This document shows, in pieces, positions 17,310 through 61,703 of a DNA stretch of 64,000 nt. A program made the translations under genes and the position numbers. The notes beneath the pieces were generated by a model. The model was given only the letters and a program-made list of their open reading frames with translations. It had not been told where the DNA came from and did not search any database. This DNA comes from Nevskiales bacterium (GTDB lineage: Bacteria; Pseudomonadota; Gammaproteobacteria; Nevskiales; CAJXLF01), in the NCBI GenBank assembly GCA_041622995.1, contig JBFJXR010000001.1, positions 104,026 through 168,025 on the forward strand, given 5' to 3'. Every line of letters starts with the position of its first letter. Position 1 is the stretch's first letter.

Positions 17310-17336
17310 GCTCAATCGCAACTGACCTACCGCACC

Positions 17337-19162: not shown

Positions 19163-19183
19163 CATTAAGGAAATAACGGAATC

Positions 19184-19579: not shown

Positions 19580-19592
19580 TCAGAGATAAAAA

Positions 19593-19865: not shown

Positions 19866-19904
19866 CAATCCGGTTATCAAGGCAGCAGAAACGGGGTCAG
19901 ACAG

Positions 19905-42858: not shown

Positions 42859-43722
42859 TTGTTCCCCTACAAACACAACTTTGTACTCAACCCGGAAATC
42901 CTAGATGACAGCCATGTCCGCTATGATCTGGATATAAATATCGAGCGCTGGCCCTGGCTGAAGCTTGCACCGGATCACCCGGTACTTATCGGGAAACACA
43001 GCTTTTTTATCGGCATAGGTTGTGGGTTCGACCTGCTCAAGCTCCCGGTTCAAACGGCTAGCGCCTTGACTAAAGTGATATGGAAAAACATGCCTGCATG
43101 CCTGCATCAAAAGCATGCAACCCGGGCCCTGGCAGAAATCTCCGACGAGGATGACAAGTTCTATTACGGCTGTGAACTGCTTAGTGCAGACGCGCAGGTC
43201 ATGCAGACAATGCAGGCTTGGGGTGTCGTGTTTCGCAAGCGTGATTACGGCAGCTGGCGTGACAGGATAAAAAATGCGCTGGAACGCACCCGCCCGCAGG
43301 ATTTCAACTTCGCTTCAGCAGAAACCGCCGGCGTAAATACTTCACAGGAATGTTTTGTCTCGCCGCTACATGAGAATCGCAAAGGCCTTTCCTGTTTCGC
43401 CTTGATAGATGCCAGAGCAGGGTTTGTGCCTTTGCATCCCTGGCATACAGGTACAGGTGACCATGCGACCGCCAGCCATTTACTGGACGTGGCTTATCAG
43501 GCGGCTCACATGGTGGGACATGCACAAGGCTGGTTATCAACCTCTCACACAGTGCATTGCATGGGCGGTGAGGCATTATTCAAAAAATATGTCGAACTGG
43601 GCACCCCATTTGAGATTACCTTGCGTAGCTGGAAGCCACTGGATAACGGGCGGGCACTGCGCTTTTCACTGTCACAGAACTCGGCTATCTGTGTGGATAT
43701 CCTGCTGGAACTGAATCAATAA
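42859..43722 (+). CDS. hypothetical protein (possible double hot-dog fold)
   Basis: 287-aa ORF with a TTG start; the first in-frame ATG is not until about codon 77. The C-terminal segment HTGTGDHATASHLLDVAYQ has the H-x13-[DE]-x3-Q spacing of the FabZ-type hot-dog active site. No confident family call. Confidence 0.5.
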   Translation: MFPYKHNFVLNPEILDDSHVRYDLDINIERWPWLKLAPDHPVLIGKHSFFIGIGCGFDLLKLPVQTASALTKVIWKNMPACLHQKHATRALAEISDEDDKFYYGCELLSADAQVMQTMQAWGVVFRKRDYGSWRDRIKNALERTRPQDFNFASAETAGVNTSQECFVSPLHENRKGLSCFALIDARAGFVPLHPWHTGTGDHATASHLLDVAYQAAHMVGHAQGWLSTSHTVHCMGGEALFKKYVELGTPFEITLRSWKPLDNGRALRFSLSQNSAICVDILLELNQ

Positions 43723-43724
43723 CT

Positions 43725-44651
43725 TCAGTGCTTATCGACAAACGCCAGGTAATGAGCAGCAGTATCCGCAGGTCTTTCCAGCATCGGCACGTGACCGGTA
43801 TCTTTCATGATAACCACTTCAGCATGTGGCAATAGCGGCCGCATGACATTGACTGAACTCACATCCAGCACACGATCGAATTCTCCCCACAAAATCAGTG
43901 CCGGATTATCAATATCGGCCAGCTTGCTTTCCAGCCCGGAGAAGCGGTCACTCTTATAAGAATCGAATATGTACTGATTGAATTCCGCATGATCCAGTGC
44001 CTTCTGTGCCAGCACGCCTTTCACCGGCCAGGGTACGAAGGGTTTCTTGTAAGAGACGAACTCTAAAAGGCCATCAAAATCCTCGACCGAGCCTACAACC
44101 AATGGATTACTTCCTTCATCCAGTGCCTTCTGCATATCGCTCTTGTCCGGTGCATTAATGCCGGCATTATTGAACAGCGCCATGGATAGCACCTGCCCCG
44201 GATATTTGTGTGTATACAGGGCTGCCAGATGCCCACCCATGGAATTACCCACAACGTGAAACTGCTCCAACTTCATCGCCGCCGCAAAACCATTCACACG
44301 ACCACGTTGCGGTGGCAGGGAATAATCCCAGTCCGCATGCCGGGCGGACTCGCCAAAGCCAGGCAGGTCAGGCGCAATGACGCGATAGCTGCCCGTCAGT
44401 GATTTTGAAAACCGTGTCCAGTTGTCCTTGTCGCCACCAAAACCATGCAGTAATAGCACCACTTCAGCATCGGCAGGCCCGCCCTCAAGGTAGTGCCAGG
44501 TTTCATCACCAATTACGATTGTTTTGTGACTCAGCCCACTGGCAGCACGCTCGGCATTCATGCCCAGTTTTGCCGTTTCTTCGGGATACAGCGCCATCAA
44601 TACGACCAGAATGGCGACAAGCCCCAACAGATGAAGAAATATTTTTTTCAT
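43725..44651 (-). CDS. secreted/membrane-anchored alpha/beta hydrolase
   Basis: 308 aa with an N-terminal hydrophobic signal, an HGFGG oxyanion motif and a GNSMGG nucleophile elbow. Confidence 0.8.
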   Translation of the reverse strand: MKKIFLHLLGLVAILVVLMALYPEETAKLGMNAERAASGLSHKTIVIGDETWHYLEGGPADAEVVLLLHGFGGDKDNWTRFSKSLTGSYRVIAPDLPGFGESARHADWDYSLPPQRGRVNGFAAAMKLEQFHVVGNSMGGHLAALYTHKYPGQVLSMALFNNAGINAPDKSDMQKALDEGSNPLVVGSVEDFDGLLEFVSYKKPFVPWPVKGVLAQKALDHAEFNQYIFDSYKSDRFSGLESKLADIDNPALILWGEFDRVLDVSSVNVMRPLLPHAEVVIMKDTGHVPMLERPADTAAHYLAFVDKH

Positions 44652-44672
44652 TTCAAGTACTCAATAGGTTTT

Positions 44673-46043
44673 TCAAATACCAGCGGCGGTTTCCAGGTCC
44701 GCCAGCGCCTGCTCCGTGTAATCCAGCAAGCGCTGCATACCCGGCACGGTACGGCGGCAGGCGGTATACCCGAAGCAGATACGATCGATATAACTGGTCA
44801 GCGTGATATTCAATGCCTGCCCATCGACCGGGATGGAGACCGGGTACATCTCATCCATTCTTGCGCCATTCCAGTACAGAGGTTTGGTTGGGCCCGGCAC
44901 ATTGGAAATGACCAGATTGAATATAGGCCGCACCTTATCTATGCCCAGGAAACTGGCAACCGGCATCGGCGATGAAATTGCCGCCGCATAGGACAGCTGC
45001 TCGACCCGGGACATTTGTCCGAGCTTCTCTTTCGCATGTTTGGTGGAAGCCACAATCGTTTCCAGTCTCTTGCCCGGGTCAGCAATTTGCGTGGCCAGAT
45101 TCGCGAGGATAATCGAAACCTGATTGCCTGCATCCGGGTTATCGGCAGAACGCACCGATACCGGCACCATGGAAATCAGGGGTTCATCCGGCAGTGCATT
45201 CTGCGAAATCAGGTACTCACGAAGTGCGCCAGCACACATCGCAAGCACTACATCATTCAGGGTTGCCCCGCTGGCCTTACCGACAGCCTTGATACGCGCC
45301 AGATCATAGGACTGTGCCGCAAAGCGACGCGGACTGGAAATCTTGACGTTGAACATAGTCGGCGGCGCCTGAAAGGGCGTGATATCAGTCGGATCTGACT
45401 TACTTGGCCTGACGATATCCCAGATTCCACGAGCCACACCTGGCACGATCCCGGAACTCTCCCGCAAGGAGTTTGCCATCATCACCAGGGGGTTGGCATC
45501 CTCAACCGGGGACAGGATACGTGGCGCTCTCGGTGGACGTTCCTTGGCCCAGAAGGGGGCATCGCCTCGCAGAGCAGGATCTTCACTCAGACCATTCATG
45601 GTGGCGCGCATCGCAGCCACACCATCAAACAGGGCATGATGGAGCTTGCCGTAAACGGCAATACGCCCATCCTCCAGCCCCTCGATAATATGCATCTCCC
45701 ACATGGGGTGACTGCGATCCATCAGGGTGCCATGCAATCTCGACACCAGGGAAAGCAGCTCACGTATCCGGCCCGGCCGAGGCAGGGATGAATGGCGGAA
45801 ATGGTGATCAAGGTCAAAGTGATCATCTTCAGCCCATTGCCAGCGTCCCATGCGAAACACCGGCCGCAGGTTATATGGCTCGACGGCCTGAGCATAACTG
45901 CGTGATTGCTCCACCAGTTCAGTCACAAAATCGGGGCCGGCATCCTCCGGCGGCGTGTACAAATGCAACCCTCCCACATGCATGGGCTGGCGTCTGCCTT
46001 CAATCCACAGAAATGCGGAGTCCTGCAAGGATAGTGATTTCAT
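44673..46043 (-). CDS. wax ester synthase/acyl-CoA:diacylglycerol acyltransferase (WS/DGAT)
   Basis: 456 aa with the catalytic HHxxxDG motif (KLHHALFDGVAA) and family-typical length and termini. Confidence 0.9.
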   Translation of the reverse strand: MKSLSLQDSAFLWIEGRRQPMHVGGLHLYTPPEDAGPDFVTELVEQSRSYAQAVEPYNLRPVFRMGRWQWAEDDHFDLDHHFRHSSLPRPGRIRELLSLVSRLHGTLMDRSHPMWEMHIIEGLEDGRIAVYGKLHHALFDGVAAMRATMNGLSEDPALRGDAPFWAKERPPRAPRILSPVEDANPLVMMANSLRESSGIVPGVARGIWDIVRPSKSDPTDITPFQAPPTMFNVKISSPRRFAAQSYDLARIKAVGKASGATLNDVVLAMCAGALREYLISQNALPDEPLISMVPVSVRSADNPDAGNQVSIILANLATQIADPGKRLETIVASTKHAKEKLGQMSRVEQLSYAAAISSPMPVASFLGIDKVRPIFNLVISNVPGPTKPLYWNGARMDEMYPVSIPVDGQALNITLTSYIDRICFGYTACRRTVPGMQRLLDYTEQALADLETAAGI

Positions 46044-46107
46044 TCCGGCTCCCGTTGTCTTTATTTACTCGGAAACGATAATGATGGCACAGTCGATTTA
46101 TTGTTGC

Positions 46108-46944
46108 TCAGGCCGCTTTCTGTTCGCGCTCTACTGCCCTGAGAAATCGCATGATTTCTGGCAGCATGCGTTCCGGGCGGGTTCGCAGTTCGAAAATGGA
46201 ATTGGCCATCATGAATTCTGCATTCGGTAGTTCATTTGCAAGAATCTTTGCATCTTCCAGATCATGCAACCAGTCGCGACCGTGGCCGATCACCAATGTA
46301 GGCATTGTGAGCTTCACTCGTTCACGCTTGGGAGGCACGACAGACCCCACCAGAACACCATGCAACACGCTGGCTATGGATTCCGGCTCTTGCGACAGTG
46401 CATTCATGCCACTTTCAAACAAGCCATTTTTGGGTCGCGGCATCATTCGCATACCCCGCGCAAACAAACGATATACCGGCGCTGCATATCGCACGGCCCC
46501 TAACAATGGCACCAGCATCATGGCTGCCGCAGGTACGGCACGCTCCATCACAGGCATCTCCAGTATCATCGCCTTCACACGATGGGGTGCCTGCACGGCA
46601 AACTGCAATGAAGTAATGGCACCCAATGACATGCCGCCAATGACTGCGGACTCGACCCCGAAGTAATCCAGCGTTACACCCACCTGCTCGGCAAAGAACT
46701 CCACCCGTAACTCCTTGGCATGCCGCGGCTTGTCGCTTTTGCCGTGTCCCAGAAGGTCGAGCAGCACCACACGATATCCCTTGCTGGCAAAGGCCAGTGC
46801 AAGATCCCTATTACAGGCGGCATCCAGCAGAATGCCATGAATCAGAATCATCAACGGCCCATCGGTAGGGCCGTGCGCCTCATAAGCCAAGCGATAATCT
46901 TCATAAGGAATGGTGCCCTTGTTGGCGAGCAGTCGTGTCGTCAT
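46108..46944 (-). CDS. alpha/beta hydrolase
   Basis: 278 aa with an IHGILL oxyanion region and a GMSLGA nucleophile elbow. Confidence 0.8.
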   Translation of the reverse strand: MTTRLLANKGTIPYEDYRLAYEAHGPTDGPLMILIHGILLDAACNRDLALAFASKGYRVVLLDLLGHGKSDKPRHAKELRVEFFAEQVGVTLDYFGVESAVIGGMSLGAITSLQFAVQAPHRVKAMILEMPVMERAVPAAAMMLVPLLGAVRYAAPVYRLFARGMRMMPRPKNGLFESGMNALSQEPESIASVLHGVLVGSVVPPKRERVKLTMPTLVIGHGRDWLHDLEDAKILANELPNAEFMMANSIFELRTRPERMLPEIMRFLRAVEREQKAA

Positions 46945-46996
46945 AGTTCAAATGTTGTGATGAATATCGGACAATGGTATCTATTGCTCCCCACCC

Positions 46997-47797
46997 TTGC
47001 CTACCTCAAAGAGCGGAAAAATGAATACAAAGCCAAACGTATTGATCACCGGCGCTGCTGCCGGCATTGGCAAGGCAACGGCCGAGCTTTTTGCCAGCAA
47101 TGGATGGTACGTCGGGCTTTTTGATGTAGACGTTGATGGCGTCTCTGCCTTACAGAAGCAACTTGGAGACGACTCTGCTCTGGCGGGCAGACTGGACGTC
47201 ACCAATCCGGATGACTGGCAATTGGCACTGGATGAATTCACTGCCTCGCACGGCGGAAAGCTTGACCTGCTGATCAACAATGCCGGGGTACTAACGACGG
47301 GGAATTTCGAAAGCATTGATCTTGGCAAACATCACGGCATGGTCGACATCAATTTCAAAGGCGTTATCAATGGCTGTTATCTGGCCTTTCCGTATTTGAA
47401 GCTGGCAGCAGGCGCTCGTGTCATCAATATTTCATCAGCCTCGGCTGTTTACGGCGCACCTATTTTTACGAGTTATTCAGCCACCAAGTTTGCAGTGCGC
47501 GGCCTCACCGAGGCTTTGAATCTGGAATGGCAAGACCACGACATCAGCGTCTCCGACATCATGCCGATTTTTGTGCAGTCCAATATGACCAGGGACATGC
47601 ATACCAAGAGTTCGGATGAAATGGGCATTAAGCTCACGCCACAGGATATTGCAAATACCGCATGGAAGGCCGCAAACCACAAGGGCTTTGCCAAGGTACA
47701 TTGGCCGGTAGGTGCAGGAACAATTCAACTCATGCTGGCGAGCCGCCTGCTGCCTACGTGGCTAATTCGCATAATTCTTCGAAAATTGAGTCTCTGA
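46997..47797 (+). CDS. short-chain dehydrogenase/reductase (SDR)
   Basis: 266 aa with the cofactor motif TGAAAGIGKA, an NNAG motif and the catalytic YSATK. Confidence 0.9.
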   Translation: MPTSKSGKMNTKPNVLITGAAAGIGKATAELFASNGWYVGLFDVDVDGVSALQKQLGDDSALAGRLDVTNPDDWQLALDEFTASHGGKLDLLINNAGVLTTGNFESIDLGKHHGMVDINFKGVINGCYLAFPYLKLAAGARVINISSASAVYGAPIFTSYSATKFAVRGLTEALNLEWQDHDISVSDIMPIFVQSNMTRDMHTKSSDEMGIKLTPQDIANTAWKAANHKGFAKVHWPVGAGTIQLMLASRLLPTWLIRIILRKLSL

Positions 47798-47811: not shown

Positions 47812-48927
47812 TCAGACGCCAGACTCTGCGGCGCTGTCTTTTAATCCATCAACACGCATCACGGCGATTGGTCGGTGAAAACCTTTTATCTCTTTATCAC
47901 CAAGCGACTCGTACTTTGCAATTTCTTCAACGCTGACGATGAACTTGAGCGGTGCCAGGATTTCGCCATGCTGGGCACTTGAACACATTCGCGCGGCCAG
48001 ATTAGTGACGGCCCCTATTGCCGCATACTGCCACCTGCCCGCAAAGCCGATTGCGCCTATGGTTGCGTAGCCTTTGGATAAACCAATACCCAAACCCAAA
48101 TCATACCCACGTTTTTTCCAGGTACTACATAGCAATTCAAAACGATCTCTCATTGCAATTGCAGTTAGCAACGCCTGCCTTTCAGGCTCATCAATTTCCA
48201 GCGGAGCATTAAAAAATATAGTCATGCTGTCCCCCGCAAAATGCTCGACCGTGCCCTGATGCGCTTCAACAATCTCACCCATTTCCGCATAAAACTCACC
48301 AAGCACACAGACGACGTCTTCAGGTTCAGCGGTTTCAGAAAAAGGCGTAAAACCCCGCAAATCAATCACACAAACAGTCACCTCCCTGCGCTTGGCTTTC
48401 AGTAGTGAATCTCCTCCTTCTGAAACAATCAATTCAGCTACTTTTTGTGGTAGAAAGTTTTTCAAGCTACCCAGACGCTGTAGTTCTGCAACCTGATCCT
48501 GTACACGTGATTCAAGTAGTTCATTCCACTCGACGTTTTCCCGATGCAAACGTTCAACGCGCAGTAAAGATCGTACTCGCGCCAACAATTCCTCACGATT
48601 AACAGGTTTGGTTAAAAATTCGTCAGCCCCTGCATCCAGCCCTTTAACACGCTCCTCTTCAGGACGTGCACCCGTCACAAGGATAATCGGTAACGCTCTG
48701 GTTTCCGTTCGCTCACGAATCCTTTGACAAACTTCATAGCCACTCAAACCTGGCATCACAACATCAAGCAACAATAAATTGGGTGGATTACTTTCGATTT
48801 GTTCCAGCGCCTCCTCACCACTGCGACTTACTGAAACATTAAATCCCTCTTCCGACAGCAAGGTACCCAGCAGGCGTAGATTTGAGGCCTCGTCATCAAC
48901 TACCAATATACGACTCTTCTCAGTCAT
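47812..48927 (-). CDS. response regulator with class III nucleotide (adenylate/guanylate-type) cyclase output domain
   Basis: 371 aa. The REC domain has DD, LLLLDVVMPGLSG and TKP. A coiled-coil linker follows. The cyclase domain has metal Asp residues (VIDLRGFT, AGDSM) and the transition-state motif TNLAARM. Confidence 0.88.
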   Translation of the reverse strand: MTEKSRILVVDDEASNLRLLGTLLSEEGFNVSVSRSGEEALEQIESNPPNLLLLDVVMPGLSGYEVCQRIRERTETRALPIILVTGARPEEERVKGLDAGADEFLTKPVNREELLARVRSLLRVERLHRENVEWNELLESRVQDQVAELQRLGSLKNFLPQKVAELIVSEGGDSLLKAKRREVTVCVIDLRGFTPFSETAEPEDVVCVLGEFYAEMGEIVEAHQGTVEHFAGDSMTIFFNAPLEIDEPERQALLTAIAMRDRFELLCSTWKKRGYDLGLGIGLSKGYATIGAIGFAGRWQYAAIGAVTNLAARMCSSAQHGEILAPLKFIVSVEEIAKYESLGDKEIKGFHRPIAVMRVDGLKDSAAESGV

Positions 48928-48935
48928 GATTCACC

Positions 48936-51900
48936 CTAGCTCAAACACTCGTTAAGCAGGTCAGCAGCGGTATCAAAATCAAATCCTCGAATAGCCACAG
49001 ACAACTTCTCCAGTGACTCTGGAGAAATTTTTTCTGCCAACGTTGGCTTCAAAGCATCAAATTTCTCCTGTGCGGTGAAGTCACTACTCATAACCAATGC
49101 CATTAATTCTGCTATCTGGCTGGAATACGCCTCCTCTGACAACACATCAGCTTTCGTTGCAACAGGGGTTTCATTGGGCAGAGCAGCCACAGACTCCCTT
49201 ACCTGTGATAATTGCCGCTCCATTTCAGCCAGCAATGGCATTAACTTATCCTCTTCGCCACTTTTCATGGCCATCTCAAGTAGCCGGGCAGTCTCAGATA
49301 ACTGATTACAACCGATATTGGCAGCCATCCCTTTTAGGGAATGAGCTTCCCTGATTGCATCCTCGGTTTTCCCTGATGACCACATTACAGTGATGCGATC
49401 ACTGGCATCTTTCTGGTCTTCGGCGAATTCAACCAGCAATTCCAGGAGCAATCGCTTTCTACCACCCAAGCGTAGCAGTGCCTCTTGCAACTCTATACCT
49501 GGAAGCTCGTCAGGCAACTCCGAAATCGCACCGTGGTCGACTTTTGTACTGACATCACTCATGTTTGCACCGTTTTCAGAAGGAGCCCACCTTGCAAGCA
49601 ATTCAAATAAAAGAGTTGAATCAATGGGCTTTGGAAGGAAATCATTCATACCAGAGGCCAAGGCCGATTCTCGATCCTGCTGCATCGCATTTGCGGTCAT
49701 GGCAATGATGGGTACGTTGCTAAACTGTTCCAATTGCCGGATGGCCCTGGTGGCCTGCAAACCATCCATTACAGGCATTTGCAGATCCATTAATACAGCG
49801 TCGAAAGTTTCTGACTGGACTTTTTCTACTGCTTGCTGGCCATCATTCGCCAATTCAACTTTAACCCCAACATCAGTCAGAACCTCTTTGGCCAGTCGCC
49901 GGTTAAGACCATTATCATCCACCACCAGCACATGCATTCCACGTAACTCAGGGGCATGTGTGTTTTCTGCCTGGCCTTCGGATAGCCCCTGTAATTGCTG
50001 ATGCGCATTGTCAGCCAGCCCGAAATCCACTGTGAAGCTGAATTCACTGCCTTTGCCGGGCTCACTTTGGACATCAATCTGACTACCCATTAACTCTATC
50101 AGCCGTTTGCATATCACCAGCCCCAGACCTGAGCCACCATACTTGCGTGATAGTGACTGATCACCCTGTGAGAATGGCGAGAAAAGACGTGAGCGCTGCT
50201 CATCCGTAATGCCAATTCCAGTGTCCTGCACTGTGAACCTTATTGAAATACCGTTTTGATTAGCTTTCACTAGCTCAATAATAAATTTCACATAACCTGT
50301 ATCCGTAAATTTCACGGAATTACCTATCAGGTTCATAAGCACCTGTTCGAGATGAGGCCCATCTCCAACCAGCAGGTCTGGAATGTCTTGTGCCCTTTCA
50401 ACTTCCATTGAAATGCCTTTGTTTACGGCTTCCGCACTCACCAGACTTGTGACCTGATCAATTACTGTTGAAAGTGAAAATGGTTCATTAATGAGGTGGA
50501 GAGCACCTGTTTCTATTCGCGTCAGATTGAGCACATCATCAAGTACCTTGAGCATTGACTCGGATGCCTTTTCAATACGACCAAGATGAGTAAGCCGCTC
50601 ATTCTCGGCACTACTTCCCAGTGCCAGTCTGGTAAATCCGGCAATGGCGTTCATTGGTGTCCTGAGCTCGTGACTCATTTTTGCCAGAAAATCAATTTTT
50701 GCCCTCGTTTCTGCCAACTCATGCCTATGTGCCAGACGTTCACGCTGACGACGTTCCCGATTGATCTGATCAGCCAGCCCCAGAGACACCAGCGTTACAA
50801 GAAAACACAAGCCAATATGTATGGCATAGGTCGTCAGGAATGTAATCGGCAACAAGCCATTAGTCTGCATCACCTTTGCCACAATGCCGACGACCAGAAC
50901 TCCCCAGACAAGCACATAAAAACGTGCCGTTCTATGGCCGGTCAGTGCCTGTGTCAATATGACAGCAGCTATCAGGACGGTAGTGATTGCCGCCACCATG
51001 ACCACCACAAAAATACTAATCTGAACAGACAGAAATATCGGCATAATGGCACACAGTACCGCTGCCGCCATTGCCATACCGAGCATCCTATCCAGTCTCG
51101 GTGAATATTTTTTCGTCTGTAATGACGTTCGTATGAATAAAGGGATAAACAAGCTACTCAGGGCTATAAATACCGTCAGGCTTTTGTTCACAAAGGCTGG
51201 TGATAGCCACCACATAAACGGAAAAGCAAAACCATCCAGACTCATTTGAGCCGCAGCGAGCCAAAAGATAAATATTATGTAATAAAGATAAGCGGCATCC
51301 CTTATGGTCAGGAAAATCAGAAAGTTGTAAATGATCATTACGGCAACAATGCCGTAAAACATGCCGTAGAGGAGATTCTCTATATTCGTCTTTTCGTAGA
51401 AAGCCTCCGCGGTCCATAATGCCAATGGCAACTGGTGCGAACCCTCAAGTTGAGCACGAATATATAATGTAATTTCGCTTCCAGGCTCAATATCAAGGGC
51501 AATTGCATAGTTACGATGGTTTATACCTGTTGAACCCGGTGGCCGGAGATCTCCACCACGCACGATTCGCAATCTCCCGGTAGCATCTGAAATATATACA
51601 TCTACATAATCCAGTGGCGGCCATGATATTTCCAGTATCCAGTTATTCTGTTTACTGTGATGTGGATTTTTCAATGAAAATCGATACCAGTATGCTGCCT
51701 GGGTAAAACCAAAGTTAAGACCCGTCACCCCGCTGGAGATAAAACTATTACTTAATGGTGGCTGGCTAACTTCTTCATAAACCATCTTCCCGGAGTCATC
51801 CCTTAGTACTTGAACCTGACTGCTCAGAACCAGTGAATGTAGCTCGGGATTAATCTCTATCGTCTGTGGTGAGGCAGCACTTGCCTGCATTAAACTATTC

Positions 51901-52016
51901 AGCAAAACGAGTGTGAATAACATGGCCTTAGGCAAATAGTTGGCCCTAGGCAATAAGCACCTCCTTATACGGAACATTTCACTCAGGAAAAAGGCCATGA
52001 AATCATTCGCAATCAA
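48936..52016 (-). CDS. 7TMR-DISM hybrid sensor histidine kinase (LadS-like: HisKA-HATPase-REC-Hpt)
   Basis: 1026 aa. A periplasmic domain (LNFGFTQAAYWYRFSLKNP) is followed by 7 TM segments. The H-box is LAKMSHELRTPMNA (His codon 50670-50672) and the G-box is GGSGLGL. REC has LMDLQMPVMDG, and Hpt has EAHSLKGMA (His codon 49341-49343). The TTG start at 52016 is uncertain; later Met codons are at 51998 and 51923. Confidence 0.9.
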   Translation of the reverse strand: MIANDFMAFFLSEMFRIRRCLLPRANYLPKAMLFTLVLLNSLMQASAASPQTIEINPELHSLVLSSQVQVLRDDSGKMVYEEVSQPPLSNSFISSGVTGLNFGFTQAAYWYRFSLKNPHHSKQNNWILEISWPPLDYVDVYISDATGRLRIVRGGDLRPPGSTGINHRNYAIALDIEPGSEITLYIRAQLEGSHQLPLALWTAEAFYEKTNIENLLYGMFYGIVAVMIIYNFLIFLTIRDAAYLYYIIFIFWLAAAQMSLDGFAFPFMWWLSPAFVNKSLTVFIALSSLFIPLFIRTSLQTKKYSPRLDRMLGMAMAAAVLCAIMPIFLSVQISIFVVVMVAAITTVLIAAVILTQALTGHRTARFYVLVWGVLVVGIVAKVMQTNGLLPITFLTTYAIHIGLCFLVTLVSLGLADQINRERRQRERLAHRHELAETRAKIDFLAKMSHELRTPMNAIAGFTRLALGSSAENERLTHLGRIEKASESMLKVLDDVLNLTRIETGALHLINEPFSLSTVIDQVTSLVSAEAVNKGISMEVERAQDIPDLLVGDGPHLEQVLMNLIGNSVKFTDTGYVKFIIELVKANQNGISIRFTVQDTGIGITDEQRSRLFSPFSQGDQSLSRKYGGSGLGLVICKRLIELMGSQIDVQSEPGKGSEFSFTVDFGLADNAHQQLQGLSEGQAENTHAPELRGMHVLVVDDNGLNRRLAKEVLTDVGVKVELANDGQQAVEKVQSETFDAVLMDLQMPVMDGLQATRAIRQLEQFSNVPIIAMTANAMQQDRESALASGMNDFLPKPIDSTLLFELLARWAPSENGANMSDVSTKVDHGAISELPDELPGIELQEALLRLGGRKRLLLELLVEFAEDQKDASDRITVMWSSGKTEDAIREAHSLKGMAANIGCNQLSETARLLEMAMKSGEEDKLMPLLAEMERQLSQVRESVAALPNETPVATKADVLSEEAYSSQIAELMALVMSSDFTAQEKFDALKPTLAEKISPESLEKLSVAIRGFDFDTAADLLNECLS

Positions 52017-55000
52017 GCATCGCCTTCTGACATCTCTGCCTGAACGTGATTATGCTCAGCTGATTTTGCCTTTAACCAATGCGAAATTGTCTCTATGAGC
52101 TTGGCTGCATCAATAGGCTTGGTCAGGAAGTCACTCATGCCCGCTTCCATACACTCATCCCGGTCACTCTGCATGGCATTGGCGGTCATCGCGATAACAG
52201 GGAGCAATTCACAGCCCGGCAGCTTTCTCAGGACACGGGTCGCCTCAAAACCGTCCATGACAGGCATTTGCACGTCCATTAACACCACGTCATACGTCTT
52301 CTGCTTAATGGCATCAATGGCTTCCTTGCCATTCTCCGCAGTATCCAGCAATACACCTACATCAGATAAGATTTCTCCCGCTAACCTTCGATTCAGTTCA
52401 TTGTCCTCAACAAGCAAAACGCGTACGCCTGTCAAATCTCCATAACTCTTGCATTCAGTGACTACCTTGGCCGCACTACTGCTTTTCTCATCGAACGACA
52501 ATATTGCTTCTTGCACAGTCTCCAGCAGCATAGACGGTTTAATGGGTTTTTCCAGATAGCTATTCGCTCCAGCAGCTACCGATGCCTCGACTAAATCCTC
52601 GCGCCCATGTGCCGTCATCAGGATAATCGCCAGATTCTGCTGGCTTAACTCGGCACGAATGAGCCGAGTTGCCTCAATGCCATCTAACTCGGGCATACGC
52701 CAATCCATCAGCACCGCATCAAAGGATTCGGATTTAAGCAATTCCAGTGCTTCTTTTGCACTGGAAACCATTGATGTTTTGAAACTCAACGACTCGAGCA
52801 GACGACTATAAACCTGGCGTGCGGCTGCATTGTCGTCGACCACTAACACACGCTTGCCACTTACTTCGCCCGCAAGTGGCTCTACCCCTTTGTTTTTACC
52901 CACACCAAGTTTGACTGAAAACCTGAAGGTACTCCCTACACCAGGCTGACTCTCCAGAGAAATTTCACCGCCCATCAATTCCACAAGTTGCTTGCAAATC
53001 GCCAGACCAAGACCGGTACCTCCATACTTTCTGGTCGTGGACTGATCCGCCTGATTGAATGGCCTGAACAGCTTCTGCTGCTGCTCCTCAGTCAGGCCTA
53101 TCCCCGAATCCCTGACCATAAAACCAATAACTGCATGATCATTCTCAACTGCCAATTGCTCAATGCCGACCTCGACCTCACCACTCTCGGTAAACTTCAA
53201 TGCATTACTGAGTAAATTCATGAGCACCTGTTCAAGCCTCAGCGGATCACCTACCAATGAAACAGGCAACTCGTAGGAACCAGGCACAATAAACTCAATA
53301 CCTTTGCTTGCCGCCTGAGATGAGAACAGATCTACCAGTTTGTCCAGGATTTGCTGCATTGAGAACTCACGAGACTCAAGCGTTAATTTTCCAGCTTCAA
53401 TCTTCGAAAGATCGAGAATGTCATTAATAATGTGTAGCAAGCTGTGCGAAGCAGTGGAGATATGCTGCAAATGCTCCTGTTTACGATCTACAGAATCACT
53501 CCTCAATGCAAGCTCGGTAAATCCGATAACAGCATTCATTGGTGTTCTTAGCTCATGGCTCATTTTGGCCAGAAACTCACTCTTGGTGGCCGTGGCTGCC
53601 TCAGCCACTTCGCGAGCACGCTCAAGCTTCTCTTTTTCCCGGCGTGCACTGATATCAGTCAGAATCCCGTCATTACCGATTGCACGACCATCCGCATCAA
53701 GAATTGTTCTTACTGACAAGGATCCCCAGAACACACTCCCATCCTTCCTGCGTAATTGCATCTGGTGGCTACTGATCTGACCATCTTCTCTGAGCGCCTC
53801 AACAATCGCTTCTCCATCCCTGGCATGCACTGATGTATCAAGTCTTAAATTGACTCCAGCAGCTATGAATTCCTCTGCTGAGGCGTAGCCAAGCATATTC
53901 GCCATAGCCGGATTGGCATTAATGCACTTACCCTTCCTGTCTGTCTGGAATATTCCTTCGAGAACGTTATTGACCATACGTTCATAACGCTCAAGATTGG
54001 TAATAGCCTGGCCACGGGCATTGAGTGCTTCCTCCTGTGCATCTATCTTTTCTTTGCGTTCAATATTAATCCTGTCTGCCAGCGCCAATGAAAGCAGAGT
54101 TACCGTCACCATTACGCCAATTTGCCATGCGTAAGCGGTTATAAAACTGGTCGGTAAAACACCGAATAACTCACTTACCTTTATCAGGATGCCAATGATA
54201 AACAAGGTCCAGGCCAGCACATAAAAACGTGCAATCCGGACACCTGCACGCAATGACATCAAACCACTGACAATAAACATGATTGCAGTCATTGCCCCCA
54301 GTCCCGCAATTGGCGGGACAACCGCGGCATAAGAAATAAAGAAGGCCGATACCCCCAGTAACCCTATCGCTGCAATCAATATATTGTTCACCCAATTTAT
54401 CTTTGGGAGGTGCAGATGTGTATGCAGGAAGTTTTTCGAAAACAAAAGCGAAAATATCAGCGTGAGGCCGACATTAATTGGCACTCCCAGGTTCACCCCT
54501 TGAGGTGATCCCAGAATAAATTCATGCAGGTATAAATGTGTAAACCCATTCAGGTTCATTTGCAGCAAGGCAAAGCTAACCAAAGTTGCAATGTAATATA
54601 TGTAGGCAACATCCCTGACAAAAGTAAATATACAAAGGTTGTACAACGCCATCACCAGCAACACGCCATAAAATATCCCGAAGCCGAGATTTTCACGTTC
54701 CGTTTTGTTGAAATAACTCTTTGCCGTCCACAATGAGATTGGAACCTGATGTGATCCTTCAGTTTTCACGCGTAAATGCAATTGAACCTGCTCACCGGGT
54801 TCAATTTTCAAAGGAAGTGCGTAATTTCTGTGGGAAAGAAGTGCTCTATTTGGCGACCTCTGATCACCTGTTCTGTAGAGCAGCGTTCTGCCCTTTTTAC
54901 TCACATAAATATCGACAATATCCAAAGGGGGGTATCCGAGTTCCAGCACCCACTCCGAATTCTCGCTTTTCCTGATTCGTGGATGCTTTAACTGAAATCG

Positions 55001-55291
55001 ATACCAATAAGTATCTGTCGTGAACCCGAAGTTAAGATTGTTTTCAGTATTTATCGAAAACTGATTGGCCTTACCTTTACGAATATCCTTATATTCATAA
55101 TTGCCCTCAACATCACGCAACAATTCGACTTTTGAGTCAAGCCGTAATGACTCTATTGTGCTGTTAATGTTGATTAAATTGCCTGAAGCGGCAAGTAAAT
55201 GACTGCTGTAGCCATAAATAATCATGGCCCAAATCATCAGTACACGTTTCCTGATCGCGGAACCCGACATACCTACACCCCCGTTCTCCAA
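52013..55291 (-). CDS. 7TMR-DISM hybrid sensor histidine kinase (RetS-like: PAS-HisKA-HATPase-REC-REC, no Hpt)
   Basis: 1092 aa. A periplasmic domain (LNFGFTTDTYWYRFQLKHP) is followed by 7 TM segments and a PAS-like segment. The H-box is LAKMSHELRTPMNA (His codon 53555-53557) and the G-box is GGTGLGL. The two REC domains have LMDWRMPELDG and LMDVQMPVMDG. The probable true start is the ATG at 55270. Confidence 0.9.
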   Translation of the reverse strand: MENGGVGMSGSAIRKRVLMIWAMIIYGYSSHLLAASGNLININSTIESLRLDSKVELLRDVEGNYEYKDIRKGKANQFSINTENNLNFGFTTDTYWYRFQLKHPRIRKSENSEWVLELGYPPLDIVDIYVSKKGRTLLYRTGDQRSPNRALLSHRNYALPLKIEPGEQVQLHLRVKTEGSHQVPISLWTAKSYFNKTERENLGFGIFYGVLLVMALYNLCIFTFVRDVAYIYYIATLVSFALLQMNLNGFTHLYLHEFILGSPQGVNLGVPINVGLTLIFSLLFSKNFLHTHLHLPKINWVNNILIAAIGLLGVSAFFISYAAVVPPIAGLGAMTAIMFIVSGLMSLRAGVRIARFYVLAWTLFIIGILIKVSELFGVLPTSFITAYAWQIGVMVTVTLLSLALADRINIERKEKIDAQEEALNARGQAITNLERYERMVNNVLEGIFQTDRKGKCINANPAMANMLGYASAEEFIAAGVNLRLDTSVHARDGEAIVEALREDGQISSHQMQLRRKDGSVFWGSLSVRTILDADGRAIGNDGILTDISARREKEKLERAREVAEAATATKSEFLAKMSHELRTPMNAVIGFTELALRSDSVDRKQEHLQHISTASHSLLHIINDILDLSKIEAGKLTLESREFSMQQILDKLVDLFSSQAASKGIEFIVPGSYELPVSLVGDPLRLEQVLMNLLSNALKFTESGEVEVGIEQLAVENDHAVIGFMVRDSGIGLTEEQQQKLFRPFNQADQSTTRKYGGTGLGLAICKQLVELMGGEISLESQPGVGSTFRFSVKLGVGKNKGVEPLAGEVSGKRVLVVDDNAAARQVYSRLLESLSFKTSMVSSAKEALELLKSESFDAVLMDWRMPELDGIEATRLIRAELSQQNLAIILMTAHGREDLVEASVAAGANSYLEKPIKPSMLLETVQEAILSFDEKSSSAAKVVTECKSYGDLTGVRVLLVEDNELNRRLAGEILSDVGVLLDTAENGKEAIDAIKQKTYDVVLMDVQMPVMDGFEATRVLRKLPGCELLPVIAMTANAMQSDRDECMEAGMSDFLTKPIDAAKLIETISHWLKAKSAEHNHVQAEMSEGDA

Positions 55292-55393
55292 CGGATAGTG
55301 CGATGACTTGATTTTATTATTAACGAAACGTCAGCGCGCTTCCCATTTATTACTTCGTCTTATTGTCAAGCAGTGTATCAGAGAATATTAAAG

Positions 55394-55424
55394 AATGAAT
55401 TTTAAGAATCATACAAAATTCATT
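55394..55424. promoter_or_regulatory. AT-only inverted repeat in the AT-rich spacer upstream of the kinase operon
   Basis: AATGAATTTT-(11 nt)-AAAATTCATT. It lies between the acyltransferase stop (55434) and the kinase operon start. Confidence 0.3.
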
Positions 55425-55433
55425 TAATTATCA

Positions 55434-56414
55434 CTAGTCCCCACCAGTGCCTTTTGAAGTCTTGCCAGACTCTAGCAGCAACTGTTCAATGCGCTGATCC
55501 TTTTCTTCCCAGAGATTCTGGATCCAGTCCTGAATTCGTTTCCTGAACACCATGTCCTCGCCATAGTTGCCATGAAAAAATTCGTCTGGAATTTCTATCT
55601 GTCTGACGTCGACGATCACACGAGCCACCCTGCCTGAAATCATATCCCAGAATTCCCGAGCCCCCTCAGGATAGACAACGGTAATATCAAGCAGCTTGTG
55701 CAGGCGCGAACCCATGACTGACATGGCGAATGCAAAACCGCCTGACTTCGGCAGCAGCAGATGCTTATAGGGCGATTCCTGCCGTTCATGTTTCGCCTGG
55801 GTAAAACGTGTGCCTTCCAGGTAGTTCAGAATCATGACGGGAATATGCTGAAACTTTTCACAGGCAGCCCGTGTCGTTGCCAGATCCTTGCCCTTGAGCT
55901 CCGGTTTCTTGGCCACCTGCTCCGGCGTATATCGCTTCATGAACGGGAAATCCAGACCCCACCAGGCGAGCCCCAGAATCGGCACCCATATCAGTTCCTG
56001 CTTCATAAAGAACTTGAAAAATGGCGCACGCATGTCGAAGGCCTTCATGACCGCAGGAATGTCGTTATAACTCTGGTGATTTGAAACGGCCATATACTGC
56101 CCATTGCGGTCCAGCTTATCGACACCGCGTATATCCCATTCCACTGCTACCATCACGTCTAGGATTTTCACATTTGCCGACGCCCATAGCTGAGCAAAAA
56201 CGGCGATCCAGTGCGACACAGCAATACGTGCCCGTCCACGTGTAATCAACTTGATAAAAATCAGAAGATACACAGGTACTGCCCAGAGCATCAGGTTAAT
56301 TAACATTATCGAAAATGTGATCACGCCCAACAGGGGCGCAGGCAGGAATTGCTTCATGGCACCGGGTAGAACTCGATCAGTGAATGACAGGGTCAAGATT
56401 ATACGACCTGCCAC
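55434..56414 (-). CDS. lysophospholipid/glycerolipid acyltransferase (PlsC/YihG-like)
   Basis: 326 aa with an N-terminal TM region, an HX4D motif (NHQSYNDIP) and an EGTR motif (LEGTRF). The track uses a GTG start at 56414; an alternative ATG is at 56357. Confidence 0.8.
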   Translation of the reverse strand: MAGRIILTLSFTDRVLPGAMKQFLPAPLLGVITFSIMLINLMLWAVPVYLLIFIKLITRGRARIAVSHWIAVFAQLWASANVKILDVMVAVEWDIRGVDKLDRNGQYMAVSNHQSYNDIPAVMKAFDMRAPFFKFFMKQELIWVPILGLAWWGLDFPFMKRYTPEQVAKKPELKGKDLATTRAACEKFQHIPVMILNYLEGTRFTQAKHERQESPYKHLLLPKSGGFAFAMSVMGSRLHKLLDITVVYPEGAREFWDMISGRVARVIVDVRQIEIPDEFFHGNYGEDMVFRKRIQDWIQNLWEEKDQRIEQLLLESGKTSKGTGGD

Positions 56415-56512
56415 AGAGGTGAAAGTCAGGCACAGGTAAAGTTTGTTACCTGAAACAGGATATTTAGATCGAGCAGTGGCAGACTACATAAAAATTTAAG
56501 GTCTTACATCCT

Positions 56513-57391
56513 ATGCTCGCTGCCATTCTCAGAGTCGCACTCCGGCTATTTGCAAAACCCTTTCTGGCACCAAGGTTTTCAGTTGCCTTTCAGCGCTGGT
56601 GGACAAATATGCTCATGCTCCCCAACCTAAATGCCCGTGGTACCAGCTTTGACCCTGTTGTTCTGAATGGCATACCCGCACGACTGATCGCTAATAAAGG
56701 CTCTACTGAGAAAACAATTCTTTATCTGCACGGAGGCGCCTACATATTGGGCAACCCCAAGGGGCACCGTGGACTGTGCTCGCATCTGGCGAAGTTCAGC
56801 AATCAGAAAATTTATTCGCTCGATTACCGACTCGCACCCGAGCATGTCTATCCTGCAGCGTTGGAAGACGCACTTGCTGCCTATCAACATCTACTGGATC
56901 AGGGCATAGAAGCGAGCAACATTTCTCTGGCGGGTGACTCGGCAGGCGCTGGACTTGCATTAAGTACTACTTTGAATATTCGTGACCGCAGCCTGCCGAT
57001 GCCCGCCAGACTCTTTTTAATTTCACCCTGGGCGGATATGACATTAAGCGGCGACAGCATCAAGACAAAAGCCAAGACTGATCCGATGATCCGGGAAGAC
57101 TGGGCGCAGAGTTGCGGCGAGATGTATTTGGGAGCGACTGCAGCCAGTCACCCGGATTGTTCACCACTTTTTGCAAACCTGGACAATTTGCCGCCCACAC
57201 TCATTCACGTCGGCAGCGAAGAAATATTACTGGATGACTCGCTACGGCTGACAGAAAAGCTCAAGGCAGGTGGTAATGAAGTAACGCTGAGGGTTTTCGA
57301 ATCCTACTGGCACGATTTTCAGCTACAGGCGGGCACTTTGCCCATGGCCAATGAATCCCTGCAGGAGGCGGCTGTTTTTTTGAATCGCTAG
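56513..57391 (+). CDS. alpha/beta hydrolase fold-3 esterase/lipase (HSL family)
   Basis: 292 aa with an HGG oxyanion motif (LHGGAY) and the nucleophile elbow GDSAGAG. Confidence 0.85.
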   Translation: MLAAILRVALRLFAKPFLAPRFSVAFQRWWTNMLMLPNLNARGTSFDPVVLNGIPARLIANKGSTEKTILYLHGGAYILGNPKGHRGLCSHLAKFSNQKIYSLDYRLAPEHVYPAALEDALAAYQHLLDQGIEASNISLAGDSAGAGLALSTTLNIRDRSLPMPARLFLISPWADMTLSGDSIKTKAKTDPMIREDWAQSCGEMYLGATAASHPDCSPLFANLDNLPPTLIHVGSEEILLDDSLRLTEKLKAGGNEVTLRVFESYWHDFQLQAGTLPMANESLQEAAVFLNR

Positions 57392-57395
57392 ATGT

Positions 57396-58640
57396 TCAGG
57401 CAGTAATATCTTCAGCGGCCCGTTGCTGCAAGGCACGCTTCACCGCTCGATCGGCTTCGCTCTCGACATGCTCACCTGATTTGGAGTCCGAGCGCTTACT
57501 GAGCCATTCAGAGCTCAACTTCCAAACAGCCTTCTCGGCTTTGCTGCCCAGAATTACACCCATATGCCCACCGGGTGAGATAACAAACTGCTTGTCCTTA
57601 CTCGAAACCAGCTCAACAATCTTGTGCGCAATCTCCGGCGGCACAAGGATGTCCGTTTCCCCGGCAAAGGCGAGGAAATCTGAAGTGATGGCTGTGAGAT
57701 CTGCAACCTCCCCTCCAATCTCGATCTGCCCTTCAGCCAGGTTGTTATCGACGGCCATCTTCACCACCATGTCCTGAATGACGCCGCCCGGATAGAGCAG
57801 CATATTGTTCAGATAATCCGAGGTGGTGGTGTAGCTCTCCACGAATTCTCTATCCCATAGTCGCGTCACCAAATCCCAGTAGGTAGTTACACTGCCGATG
57901 GGGTCGGTCATCTTGAAACTTAGCGTCGTCATCCAGCTTGGCGCTGAAAGCCAAGAAGGATTGAGGCTATGCAGCTTGAAGTTACTGAATTTGCGAATGA
58001 GCTTGGCGGGCGTATTGATCATGGCCGCTGAACGGGCCACGGCACCACCACCGCGTAAATCTATCGGGCTGGCGACCGTCACGATGTTTTTAATATCAGG
58101 ATCTTTGGCAATACCGGCATGCATCAGAATCAGCAGGCCACCCATGCACCAACCCATAAGAGAGACCTCCCGGCTACCCGAATGCAACCGTACCTCTTCA
58201 ATCGCCTTGCCCAGCATATCGTGAGCGTAATCCTTGAGATTAAGATGGGCATGACGTTTTTCCGGCTTGCCCCAATCCACCAGATAGGTGTGATATCCAC
58301 TGGCCGCCATATAGCGAGCAAGACTGCGTGTAGGCATCAGATCGAATGTCTCGGTGGTCACGCCCAATGGTGGCACCAGAATAAGCGGCACGCTCTTTCT
58401 CTTGGTGACCACTGGCATCTGCGTGCCATCGCTCAAATCAATTGAAGTCTCGTGCGGCAAAGGATAAAACCGCAATGCCATCGGGTCGCCGGTATAGATA
58501 GTCTCGTAAGGAGTCATGCCGGACTTGACCAGAATCTCCCTCAGGAAAAGCCAGTCGAAGGCATTGCTTGCCGCCGAGGCGGCTCGCTCGTTAAGCGCCA
58601 AAGCCTGATCAATTACATTACGTGCCAGTCCGGAAGCCAT
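57396..58640 (-). CDS. PhaC-like alpha/beta enzyme with Cys nucleophile (PHA synthase-like)
   Basis: 414 aa with a G-x-C-x-G-G box (MGWCMGGL), a PhaC-like PLILVPP...DWGKP region, and candidate triad Asp (GETDILVP) and His (PGGHMGV). Confidence 0.65.
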   Translation of the reverse strand: MASGLARNVIDQALALNERAASAASNAFDWLFLREILVKSGMTPYETIYTGDPMALRFYPLPHETSIDLSDGTQMPVVTKRKSVPLILVPPLGVTTETFDLMPTRSLARYMAASGYHTYLVDWGKPEKRHAHLNLKDYAHDMLGKAIEEVRLHSGSREVSLMGWCMGGLLILMHAGIAKDPDIKNIVTVASPIDLRGGGAVARSAAMINTPAKLIRKFSNFKLHSLNPSWLSAPSWMTTLSFKMTDPIGSVTTYWDLVTRLWDREFVESYTTTSDYLNNMLLYPGGVIQDMVVKMAVDNNLAEGQIEIGGEVADLTAITSDFLAFAGETDILVPPEIAHKIVELVSSKDKQFVISPGGHMGVILGSKAEKAVWKLSSEWLSKRSDSKSGEHVESEADRAVKRALQQRAAEDITA

Positions 58641-58704
58641 ATATTTGTCCTAGTAAAAAATTGAGAACCCCCCGCAAGATTTCGTATTTTACCCTTTCAT
58701 TGAC

Positions 58705-59160
58705 TCAGGCGTATTCAGCCTGAATACGTTCAATAAACCTGTCGATCAGTTTTGCGAAATACCCTCGAATGAAAGGCTTGGCGGGTGCCCGCAGCAGCAT
58801 CGGCACATCCACTTCAATCGTGCCGGCGATGTCGAGTTTTAATACCGCCTTGTTACCGTCCTGTACAGCACAGAAATGCCCGCCAATCTCGGCATTGCCC
58901 TGTGTTGTGACAGGGAAAAGCGTCACCACACGGTTTGCAGCGTCGATTTCAAACCGCGTCACCACCTGCAGCTCATAAGTCATGCCCGCAACGTGAATTG
59001 GCTCGATATCCCATAGCCATTCTCCATCTCCCTGATCGGTAAAGGCCCTTAATTTGGGAAAATGCGACATGGTTGCAGGAAGATCACTCAACAACTCAAA
59101 TAATTCAGATGCCTCCCCTTCTATGTGGGCATTACGTACCAGATCTACCTTTGCTTTCAT
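58705..59160 (-). CDS. hypothetical protein, SRPBCC/START-like
   Basis: 151-aa ORF. Size and the alternating beta/helix pattern with a long C-terminal helix fit SRPBCC lipid-binding folds. The call is weak. Confidence 0.5.
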   Translation of the reverse strand: MKAKVDLVRNAHIEGEASELFELLSDLPATMSHFPKLRAFTDQGDGEWLWDIEPIHVAGMTYELQVVTRFEIDAANRVVTLFPVTTQGNAEIGGHFCAVQDGNKAVLKLDIAGTIEVDVPMLLRAPAKPFIRGYFAKLIDRFIERIQAEYA

Positions 59161-59246
59161 ACGCTCTCATTCCTGATTTCAGATGTGTCACTTTTATGTA
59201 AAAAGGCTAATTCACGGGCATTATTCCCTATCAGGCGAATAAAGAC

Positions 59247-59272
59247 TATAATAGAGGAAAGATTTCTTTCCT
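59247..59272 (+). promoter_or_regulatory. candidate -10 box plus palindromic operator upstream of the acyl-CoA dehydrogenase gene
   Basis: TATAAT at 59247-59252 is followed immediately by AGGAAAGA-TT-TCTTTCCT (59255-59272, 8-bp perfect arms). Confidence 0.35.
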
Positions 59273-59362
59273 GAATTCTACAATTGAAACCTCGACCCCG
59301 CATCCGCATAGGTCTACTCTGCATGTCTGCGGTCGTCTTCACATTATTAGGAGTGCTCTGGC

Positions 59363-61592: not shown

Positions 61593-61703
61593 ACAACATA
61601 AAGAAAATATTACTAACCGTTTGTATTTATATCGACTATTCTCAAGTTAGTCTGGGCGAATACTCGCAGGGGTGTGCTCGCCCTGATAGTGGAGGATAGG
61701 TGT

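Follow-up and report, generated by a model that had tools for sequence, protein, structure and literature searches.

We analysed a 64,000-nucleotide stretch of DNA from a Nevskiales bacterium (NCBI GenBank assembly GCA_041622995.1, contig JBFJXR010000001.1, positions 104,026 to 168,025 of the forward strand), hereafter called the window; coordinates count from its first letter unless a related locus (L number) is named. Three co-directional open reading frames (ORFs) on the minus strand of this window are the subject of this work: two 7TMR-DISM hybrid histidine kinases, HK1 (52013-55291) and HK2 (48936-52016), followed by a response regulator with a class III nucleotide cyclase domain, REC-cyclase (47812-48927). 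The block has an operon-like layout. Its domain content covers sensor, kinase, receiver, Hpt and cyclase domains, the catalytic and phospho-acceptor residues of these domains are intact, and the linkage of kinase, Hpt and cyclase is conserved in relatives.

An earlier note on this DNA had described the three genes as tightly packed head to tail. The ORF list confirmed this placement, and the distance of 8 nt given there between the HK2 stop and the ATG of the cyclase gene is exact. The lengths assigned to the two kinases, 1092 and 1026 aa, proved to be artefacts of taking maximal ORFs, since shorter proteins are found in public records. For HK2, a TTG at 51953 is preceded by a Shine-Dalgarno-like sequence (AGGAGG-N6-TTG) and gives a protein with a normal signal peptide (MPRANYLPKAMLFTLVLLNSLMQASA), in accordance with the 1005 aa of the public gene call P0167. 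HK2 therefore most likely begins at TTG 51953. With this start the gap between HK1 and HK2 would be 59 nt, which is also the upper limit of their spacing, and the overlap between the HK1 stop and a TTG start that had been reported at 52013-52016 is probably not real. For HK1, public calls give either 1085 aa (ATG 55270, the probable start, with a G-rich stretch in front) or 1074 aa (start 55237), and the 1092-aa form does not occur among the public records. As far as the sequence tells, these corrected starts leave the operon reading unweakened. The orthologous cluster L174 has intergenic gaps of 25 and 19 nt, and 4-nt gene overlaps are found in other relatives. The three-gene block is chromosomal and probably co-transcribed. 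Its presumed promoter region is the AT-rich spacer upstream of HK1 (55292..55433, minus strand), in which a scan with the sigma-70 consensus gave no match. A perfect 10-bp inverted repeat in this spacer (AATGAATTTT-N11-AAAATTCATT, 55394-55424) may serve as an operator, or else weakly terminate transcription of the acyltransferase gene upstream.

HK1 consists of a signal peptide, 7TMR-DISMED2, 7TM, PAS, HisKA, HATPase_c and two receivers, REC1 and REC2, in this order (all features of the block are given for the minus strand). The Pfam scan identified the periplasmic sensor 7TMR-DISMED2 at 54725..55132 (E 7e-32) and the membrane module 7TMR-DISM_7TM at 54071..54694 (profile positions 1-205 of 205, E 1e-40), within which six hydropathy peaks were seen. 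The cytoplasmic PAS domain (53648..53992; PAS E 9e-12, PAS_9 E 1e-9) is absent from HK2 and kept in the HK1 orthologues. The kinase core at 52907..53584 (HisKA E 9e-19, HATPase_c E 2e-31) carries the phospho-accepting His579 (codon 53555-53557), and the N, G1 (DSGIG), F and G2 (GGTGLGL) boxes are all intact. Two Response_reg stretches (E 1e-58) follow: REC1 at 52502..52855 with Asp863 (codon 52703-52705), and the terminal receiver REC2 at 52076..52426 with Asp1006 (codon 52274-52276). No Hpt was detected in HK1 by the Pfam scan, and the earlier description of this kinase, with a PAS domain and two receivers and lacking an Hpt, was confirmed. Among solved structures, the HK1 kinase core matched 7z8n best (218 bits), compared to 141 bits for RetS (6dk7). 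The entry 7z8n is deposited as "Histidine kinase", and we take it to be GacS. Since the G1 and G2 boxes of the ATP lid are intact as in 7z8n, HK1 looks like a working autokinase.

HK2 is composed of 7TMR-DISMED2 (E 4e-31), 7TM (E 3e-41), HisKA, HATPase_c, one receiver (Response_reg, E 7e-30), an Hpt (E 9e-11) and a C-terminal tail module. The single receiver and the C-terminal Hpt are as previously described, and every other domain assignment of the earlier note, including the cyclase, was upheld by Pfam as well. The kinase core (50022..50699) has its phospho-accepting His449 at codon 50670-50672 and intact N, G1, F and G2 boxes, and the receiver (49587..49937) carries Asp744 (codon 49785-49787). 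The Hpt at 49194..49442 (Pfam 42 bits), with His892 in the motif HSLKG (codon 49341-49343), is the only Hpt of the cluster. All three histidine codons that had been quoted for the two kinases are exact. The last residues of HK2 (approximately 952-1026; 48939..49163) form a helical tail module of about 60-70 aa with the conserved core pattern DF.A ... L...L ... FD(F/Y)..A...L. The same module ends kinases of the related loci L171, L172, L083, L168, L173 and L167, where it stands after the Hpt or straight after the receiver; it is found in most DISM kinases of these clusters and is absent from HK1 of the window and from the MASE2 and MASE7 kinases of relatives. It has no match in Pfam, and a single-sequence library search gave only six weak matches.

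HK1 and HK2 had been called clear paralogues, and indeed their sensor regions are 39% and their kinase and receiver parts 41% identical, and the H-box LAKMSHELRTPMNA is the same in both. Both have the G1 box in the form DxGxG, the G2 box in the form GGxGLGL, and the N and F boxes. The acidic pair, the phospho-accepting Asp, the Thr and the Lys are kept in all four receivers of the cluster. All the sites expected for the proposed His-Asp-His-Asp relay are therefore present: His579 and His449 in the kinase cores, Asp1006 and Asp744 in the terminal receivers, His892 in the Hpt and Asp55 in the regulator.

The REC-cyclase (371 aa) contains a receiver with Asp55 (codon 48763-48765), a helix at residues 111-156, short pre-catalytic helices and a class III cyclase domain (Pfam Response_reg E 9e-31, Guanylate_cyc E 2e-14, 54 bits). 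This is the composition that had been read from the sequence before, and the "coiled coil" mentioned there corresponds to the modelled helix 111-156. In an AlphaFold2 model built from a 34-homologue alignment (pLDDT 89), the last helix of the receiver continues unbroken over residues 111-156 and is followed by two short helices and the cyclase fold. The receiver residues D11, D12, D55, T85 and K107 are invariant in the 34 homologues, and the receiver is most similar to that of PleD. The catalytic domain (47881..48390) has the metal-binding residues Asp189 and Asp233, Arg298, and the transition-state residues Asn309 and Arg313. Asp189, Asp233, Asn309 and Arg313 were found in all 120 homologues compared and Arg298 in 116 of them, and the REC-cyclase is almost certainly catalytic. 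The nearest solved matches of this domain are all class IIIb-like, namely CyaB of Pseudomonas aeruginosa (3r5g), Cya2 of Synechocystis (2w01) and CyaC of Spirulina (1wc0), of which CyaB is the closest (99 bits, target-normalised TM-score 0.91, root-mean-square deviation 1.6 Å). Over the full length, the REC-cyclase matched the structures of WspR and PleD at high root-mean-square deviation, and no full-length structure of a receiver joined to a class III cyclase was among the PDB matches.

The earlier note had named missing co-conservation as one ground for refutation. The genes of the block are co-conserved in seven other distinct loci, one of which is an orthologous trio. Peptide-pattern scans of genome and metagenome collections retrieved only a distant clade with approximately 50% identity, and the close relatives were obtained by exact-protein look-ups. 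The orthologous trio (L174) comes from another metagenome-assembled genome and likewise has its Hpt on HK2; identities are 64% for HK1 over the full length, 51% for HK2 and 67% for the N-terminus of the cyclase. Six further relatives have one to four hybrid kinases (DISM, MASE2 or MASE7) together with an orthologous cyclase. In L171 and L172, a DISM-PAS-kinase-REC-REC-Hpt protein is followed by a DISM-kinase-REC protein and the REC-cyclase. A MASE2 and a MASE7 hybrid kinase lie between the two DISM kinases of L083 (L083:3878-7422), and one MASE2 hybrid kinase is inserted in L086 (L086:4780-6534). A single DISM-PAS kinase precedes the cyclase in L168 and L173. On two short contigs, L167 (73% cyclase identity) and L170, the sequence just ahead of the cyclase gene encodes an Hpt. 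Rokubacteria, betaproteobacteria and soil metagenomes are the sources of the distant REC-cyclases. The gene immediately preceding them nearly always encodes a hybrid kinase, and no DISM neighbour was found in this clade. Overall, 30 of the 32 REC-cyclase loci with enough upstream sequence have a kinase core on the same strand within 2.5 kb upstream. The kinase homologues occur in records labelled Nevskiales, Nevskiaceae or Panacagrimonas. Cytochrome b and the pyrophosphatase encoded in the window share 90% clusters with proteins recorded as "Nevskiales bacterium", in line with an uncultured gammaproteobacterium as the source.

The number of Hpt domains per cluster is more constant than their position. 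Exactly one recognisable Hpt is present in seven of the eight DISM-clade clusters seen in full, the exception being L173. HK2 carries it in the window and L174, and probably also in L167; in four relatives (L171:419-4273, L172:340-4152, L083:24-3881 and L086:1197-4778) it belongs to the HK1 orthologue. Judged from these sequences, the Hpt has moved between the two paralogues while the rule of one per cluster was kept. In a receiver comparison that asked whether the REC-Hpt end of HK2 derives from an HK1-type gene, the HK2 receiver was equally similar to the REC2 domains of HK1 orthologues and to the receivers of HK2 orthologues. Terminal receivers of all compared kinases, including those with MASE2 or MASE7, share 50-66% mutual identity; REC2 of HK1 is 53% identical to the HK2 receiver and 51-66% identical to the terminal receivers in related clusters. 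Such uniformity is expected if the kinases share one Hpt partner. REC1 of the HK1-type proteins forms a class apart from the terminal receivers, and this class is conserved in the HK1 orthologues.

We consider it rather probable that the cluster encodes a shared-Hpt phosphorelay in which several kinases feed one Hpt and, through it, one REC-cyclase, with a cyclic nucleotide as output. In this scheme HK1 and HK2 would act as inner-membrane sensors that read periplasmic cues via 7TMR-DISMED2, and HK1 would add a cytoplasmic input through its PAS domain. Both kinases would autophosphorylate on the H-box (His579 in HK1, His449 in HK2) and pass the phosphoryl group to their own terminal receivers (Asp1006 and Asp744, respectively). 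Both receivers would then donate to the single Hpt at His892 of HK2, which in turn would phosphorylate Asp55 of the REC-cyclase. The helix that runs from alpha5 into the linker (111-156) of a presumed dimer may transmit the resulting change and switch on the class III cyclase domain. All phosphotransfer steps are inferred, as are the sign of the regulation, the ligands sensed and the identity of the nucleotide. For HK1 we propose a transfer in trans to the Hpt of HK2 in the manner of LadS, whose receiver phosphorylates the GacS Hpt (PMC7695008, PMC4866733). Indirect support for this borrowing comes from clusters of up to four kinases that have the same type of terminal receiver and one Hpt between them. 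For the output, the cyanobacterial cyclase CyaC, reportedly activated by phosphotransfer (Kasahara and Ohmori 1999, cited in PMC1183210), would be a precedent.

Several observations weigh against this scheme. It gives REC1 of HK1 no role. No recognisable Hpt was found in cis in L173 and in most of the clade with about 50% identity, as searched by tblastn with one query, which indicates that an Hpt is not obligatory for the REC-cyclase family. The residues His229 and Ala302 of the cyclase make cAMP as its product a guess. Neither a cyclic nucleotide receptor (domains cNMP_binding, GAF and CRP) nor a phosphodiesterase was found among the window ORFs scanned, which comprise all but a few short ones; the earlier note had likewise seen no receptor gene in the window. 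Finally, consensus scans identified no promoter or terminator for the cluster, with match counts at or below the shuffled expectation, and the spacers are uninformative in this respect.

In class III cyclases the base is specified by Lys together with Asp or Thr for ATP, and by Glu together with Cys or Gly for GTP. Alignment to 3r5g, 2w01 and 1wc0 placed His229 (codon 48241-48243) at the adenine-binding Lys of CyaB and CyaC and the Glu of Cya2, and Ala302 (codon 48022-48024) at the Thr of CyaB and CyaC and the Gly of Cya2; the pair is the canonical one of neither adenylyl nor guanylyl cyclases. The first position is Arg in 102, His in eight, Lys in five and Ala in three of 120 homologues, and the second is Gly in 87 and Ala in 28 (Gly or Ala in 115/120). 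With His229 and Ala302 (Arg and Gly in the family) in place of Lys and Asp or Thr, the product is not predictable from sequence. It is conceivable, though unlikely, that the relay works as proposed and makes cGMP, a pyrimidine cyclic nucleotide or a mixture, a variant that concerns the output step only and fits any wiring. Besides the residues themselves, the small second residue, which recalls Cya2, a guanylyl cyclase with a Glu/Gly pair, speaks for it, as does the score of the PADLOC PycC models (55 bits), which is as good as that of the generic Pfam cyclase model (54 bits). However, the guanylyl cyclase Glu is missing from the base-specifying position, each of Arg, His and Lys can donate the hydrogen bond that adenine N1 needs, and the nearest solved domains belong to the adenylyl cyclases CyaB and CyaC. 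No Pycsar-type effector is adjacent. One further clue favours cAMP: L173, whose cyclase carries Lys at the first of these positions, also encodes a Vfr/CAP-like cyclic nucleotide-binding transcription factor (140 bits to Vfr). Its gene (L173:5753-6436, minus in the locus) is divergent and directly adjoins the DISM kinase-cyclase pair on the upstream side, and the factor retains the Glu of Vfr and has Arg-Thr where Vfr has Arg-Ser. We regard cAMP as the likeliest product, albeit an uncertain one.

A broader version of the same idea extends to the whole REC-cyclase family, whose messenger may not be cAMP but cGMP, a pyrimidine cyclic nucleotide or the mixed output of a relaxed specificity, serving as a housekeeping signal under two-component control; in the clade of the window, this signal would integrate several envelope sensors via one Hpt. 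The combination of Arg or His with Gly or Ala at the base-specifying positions and invariant catalytic residues suggests such a reading, which we regard as rather doubtful.

A different wiring would follow if HK1 acted like RetS, restraining HK2 rather than feeding it, so that the two sensors oppose each other on the cyclase. Heterodimers of the dimerization and histidine phosphotransfer (DHp) domains, a phosphate drain into the two receivers of HK1, or dephosphorylation of the HK2 receiver could bring this about, and these three mechanisms are documented for RetS (PMC7695008). HK1 has the RetS domain order (DISM, kinase and two receivers without an Hpt), with identical H-boxes and 41% identity between the kinase cores, heterodimers are conceivable, and the REC1 class, conserved in HK1 orthologues, lacks an assigned role. 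The G1 and G2 boxes point the other way: those of HK1 are intact like those of 7z8n, while RetS (6dk7) has DSGHPF and KLGSHLGL at these places. Moreover, the Hpt on the HK1 orthologue in four relatives places HK1 in the forward path, and its terminal receiver shares the type found in the other kinases. Antagonism of this kind seems quite unlikely to us.

We give about as little credence to a direct two-component transfer from the H-box His to the receiver of the cyclase, with the fused receivers and the Hpt as side branches that serve as sinks, feedback or links elsewhere. L173 and most of the distant clade, where a hybrid kinase lies directly upstream of a REC-cyclase with no detectable Hpt, speak for this wiring to some degree. 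Against it, a lone Hpt that changes place between HK1 and HK2 is retained in all but one of the fully seen DISM-clade clusters, and a divergent Hpt, or one encoded elsewhere, may have escaped the one-query tblastn in L173 and the distant clade. A Pycsar defence cyclase (PycC), which would lie beside an effector with a cyclic nucleotide-binding domain and lack two-component input, was rejected, since no effector or cyclic nucleotide-binding gene was found among the window ORFs scanned and the protein carries a receiver and is linked to kinases; the PycC match is at generic level.

The shared-Hpt relay can be set beside several known systems. The earlier note had labelled the two kinases RetS-like and LadS-like. 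The domain order supports these labels, but the additional PAS domain and intact boxes of HK1, the Hpt of HK2 and the adjacent cognate regulator do not. A DISMED2 profile built from ten sequences matched only the periplasmic structures of RetS in the PDB (3jyb, 2xbz and 9jpe, E approximately 4e-11), whereas a single-sequence search found nothing; the sensors thus belong to the same family as that of RetS. HK1 further resembles RetS in its DISMED2 and 7TM regions and in a kinase followed by two tandem receivers without an Hpt. It differs in its G1 and G2 boxes, DSGIGL and YGGTGLGL instead of the degenerate sequences of RetS, and in its location in a conserved cluster with a response regulator gene. 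RetS and LadS are orphan kinases that act on GacS (PMC7695008). The LadS order, a single receiver without an Hpt, is found in the HK2 orthologues of L171, L172 and L083, but not in HK2 of the window. Calcium binding by DISMED2 is a further mark of LadS-type sensors. The resemblance is architectural only, and the name 7TMR-DISM hybrid kinases is therefore preferable to calling them functional RetS/LadS homologues.

Like the LadS-GacS-RetS network of P. aeruginosa, the cluster combines periplasmic 7TMR-DISMED2 and 7TM regions with hybrid kinase transmitters, and the proposed feeding of the HK2 Hpt by HK1 parallels the way in which the Hpt-less LadS feeds the Hpt of another kinase. However, RetS and LadS are encoded at separate loci and converge on GacS/GacA and the Rsm small RNAs, whereas here the kinases are adjacent and the enzymatic output lies in the cluster. 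GacS, the Hpt carrier of that network, has a HAMP-linked sensor; the Hpt carrier of the window is a DISM kinase. Funnelling into one Hpt is itself familiar. In Vibrio, the Hpt-less hybrid kinases LuxN, LuxQ and CqsS pass phosphate to one Hpt, LuxU, and one regulator, LuxO. The HptB pathway of Pseudomonas is a many-to-one relay through a shared Hpt as well (PMC8543379). LuxU and the Hpt of the HptB pathway are small stand-alone proteins, and the regulators they serve control transcription or a partner switch, whereas in the window the Hpt is fused to a kinase and the regulator is a cyclase.

On the output side, CyaC of Anabaena and Spirulina likewise has a class IIIb-type catalytic domain under a phosphorylated receiver. 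CyaC is, however, a single polypeptide with its own kinase and receivers and has the specificity pair Lys/Thr, whereas in the window a separate regulator with His/Ala is served by membrane kinases. P. aeruginosa CyaB also has Lys and Thr at the base-specifying positions, unlike the window cyclase. It is regulated by an N-terminal MASE2 membrane domain and not by a receiver; in the clusters studied here, MASE2 occurs only on extra kinases of relatives. The REC-coiled coil-GGDEF proteins WspR, PleD and DgcR share the arrangement in which receiver alpha5 runs into a long helix and a nucleotide cyclase fold, their output being GGDEF in place of a class III mononucleotide cyclase. Proteins of the REC-GGDEF class are activated by a phosphorylation-driven rearrangement of the dimeric helix (PMC8041772).

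The components and their logic, Hpt-sharing hybrid kinases and receiver-controlled class III cyclases such as CyaC, are already known. As to their combination, full-text literature searches turned up no account of a cyclase regulator served by 7TMR-DISM kinases, and the earlier note likewise knew of no characterised RetS/LadS-like pair wired to a cyclase. This wiring of familiar parts is thus conserved, of moderate interest and, as far as the literature found goes, undescribed.

The chromosomal context of the block is ordinary, with petABC, hisGDC, murA and lptCAB-rpoN-hpf-ptsN-hprK in the window. The block (47812-55291) has a GC content of 0.467 (0.42-0.49 at third codon positions, GC3), compared to 0.518 (GC3 0.50-0.65) in the rest of the window. 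A mobile island was considered as an explanation and rejected: there are no mobility genes nearby, and the orthologous clusters match the GC content of their own flanks (for example 0.632 vs. 0.631 in L083). The cluster is flanked on both sides by genes of lipid metabolism (43725-47797 and 55434-61183), including a WS/DGAT wax-ester synthase, several alpha/beta hydrolases, a short-chain dehydrogenase, an acyltransferase and an acyl-CoA dehydrogenase, and similar genes occur near the clusters of relatives (L083:18433-19794, L167:2546-3316 and L168:6508-7407). Their recurrence could reflect shared ancestry or a functional link. Elsewhere in the window (14961-21650), rpoN-hpf-ptsN is followed by hprK, rapZ and genes for an EIIA-Man-type protein, HPr and enzyme I, a nitrogen phosphotransferase system arrangement that includes HPr kinase. 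Five ORFs of 90-287 aa had no Pfam match at E 1e-4: 42859-43722 (+), 58705-59160 (-), 24655-24951 (+), 61674-61949 (+) and 63619-63948 (-); the first of these, with 287 aa, is called as a gene in public records. A tRNA-Phe (GAA) at 62077-62152 on the minus strand, detected by Rfam and ARAGORN, was the only structured RNA found in the window.

To our knowledge, 7TMR-DISM sensors of the RetS/LadS type have been studied almost only in Pseudomonas, where their output is read indirectly via GacS and small RNAs. DISM sensors hard-wired to a simple enzymatic output would offer a tractable way to find out what DISMED2 domains sense. The cluster would likewise be tractable for the question of how at least two hybrid kinases share one Hpt and whether their inputs add or oppose, and the movable Hpt, on HK1 or HK2 depending on the genome, is a natural experiment showing that its position within the cluster is interchangeable. 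The REC-cyclase family is large and almost always kinase-linked, and its odd base-specifying residues make the second messenger an easily testable question. Should its messenger prove to differ from cAMP, the family would define a new class of specificity among class III cyclases, one that is widely distributed among bacteria of soil and groundwater.

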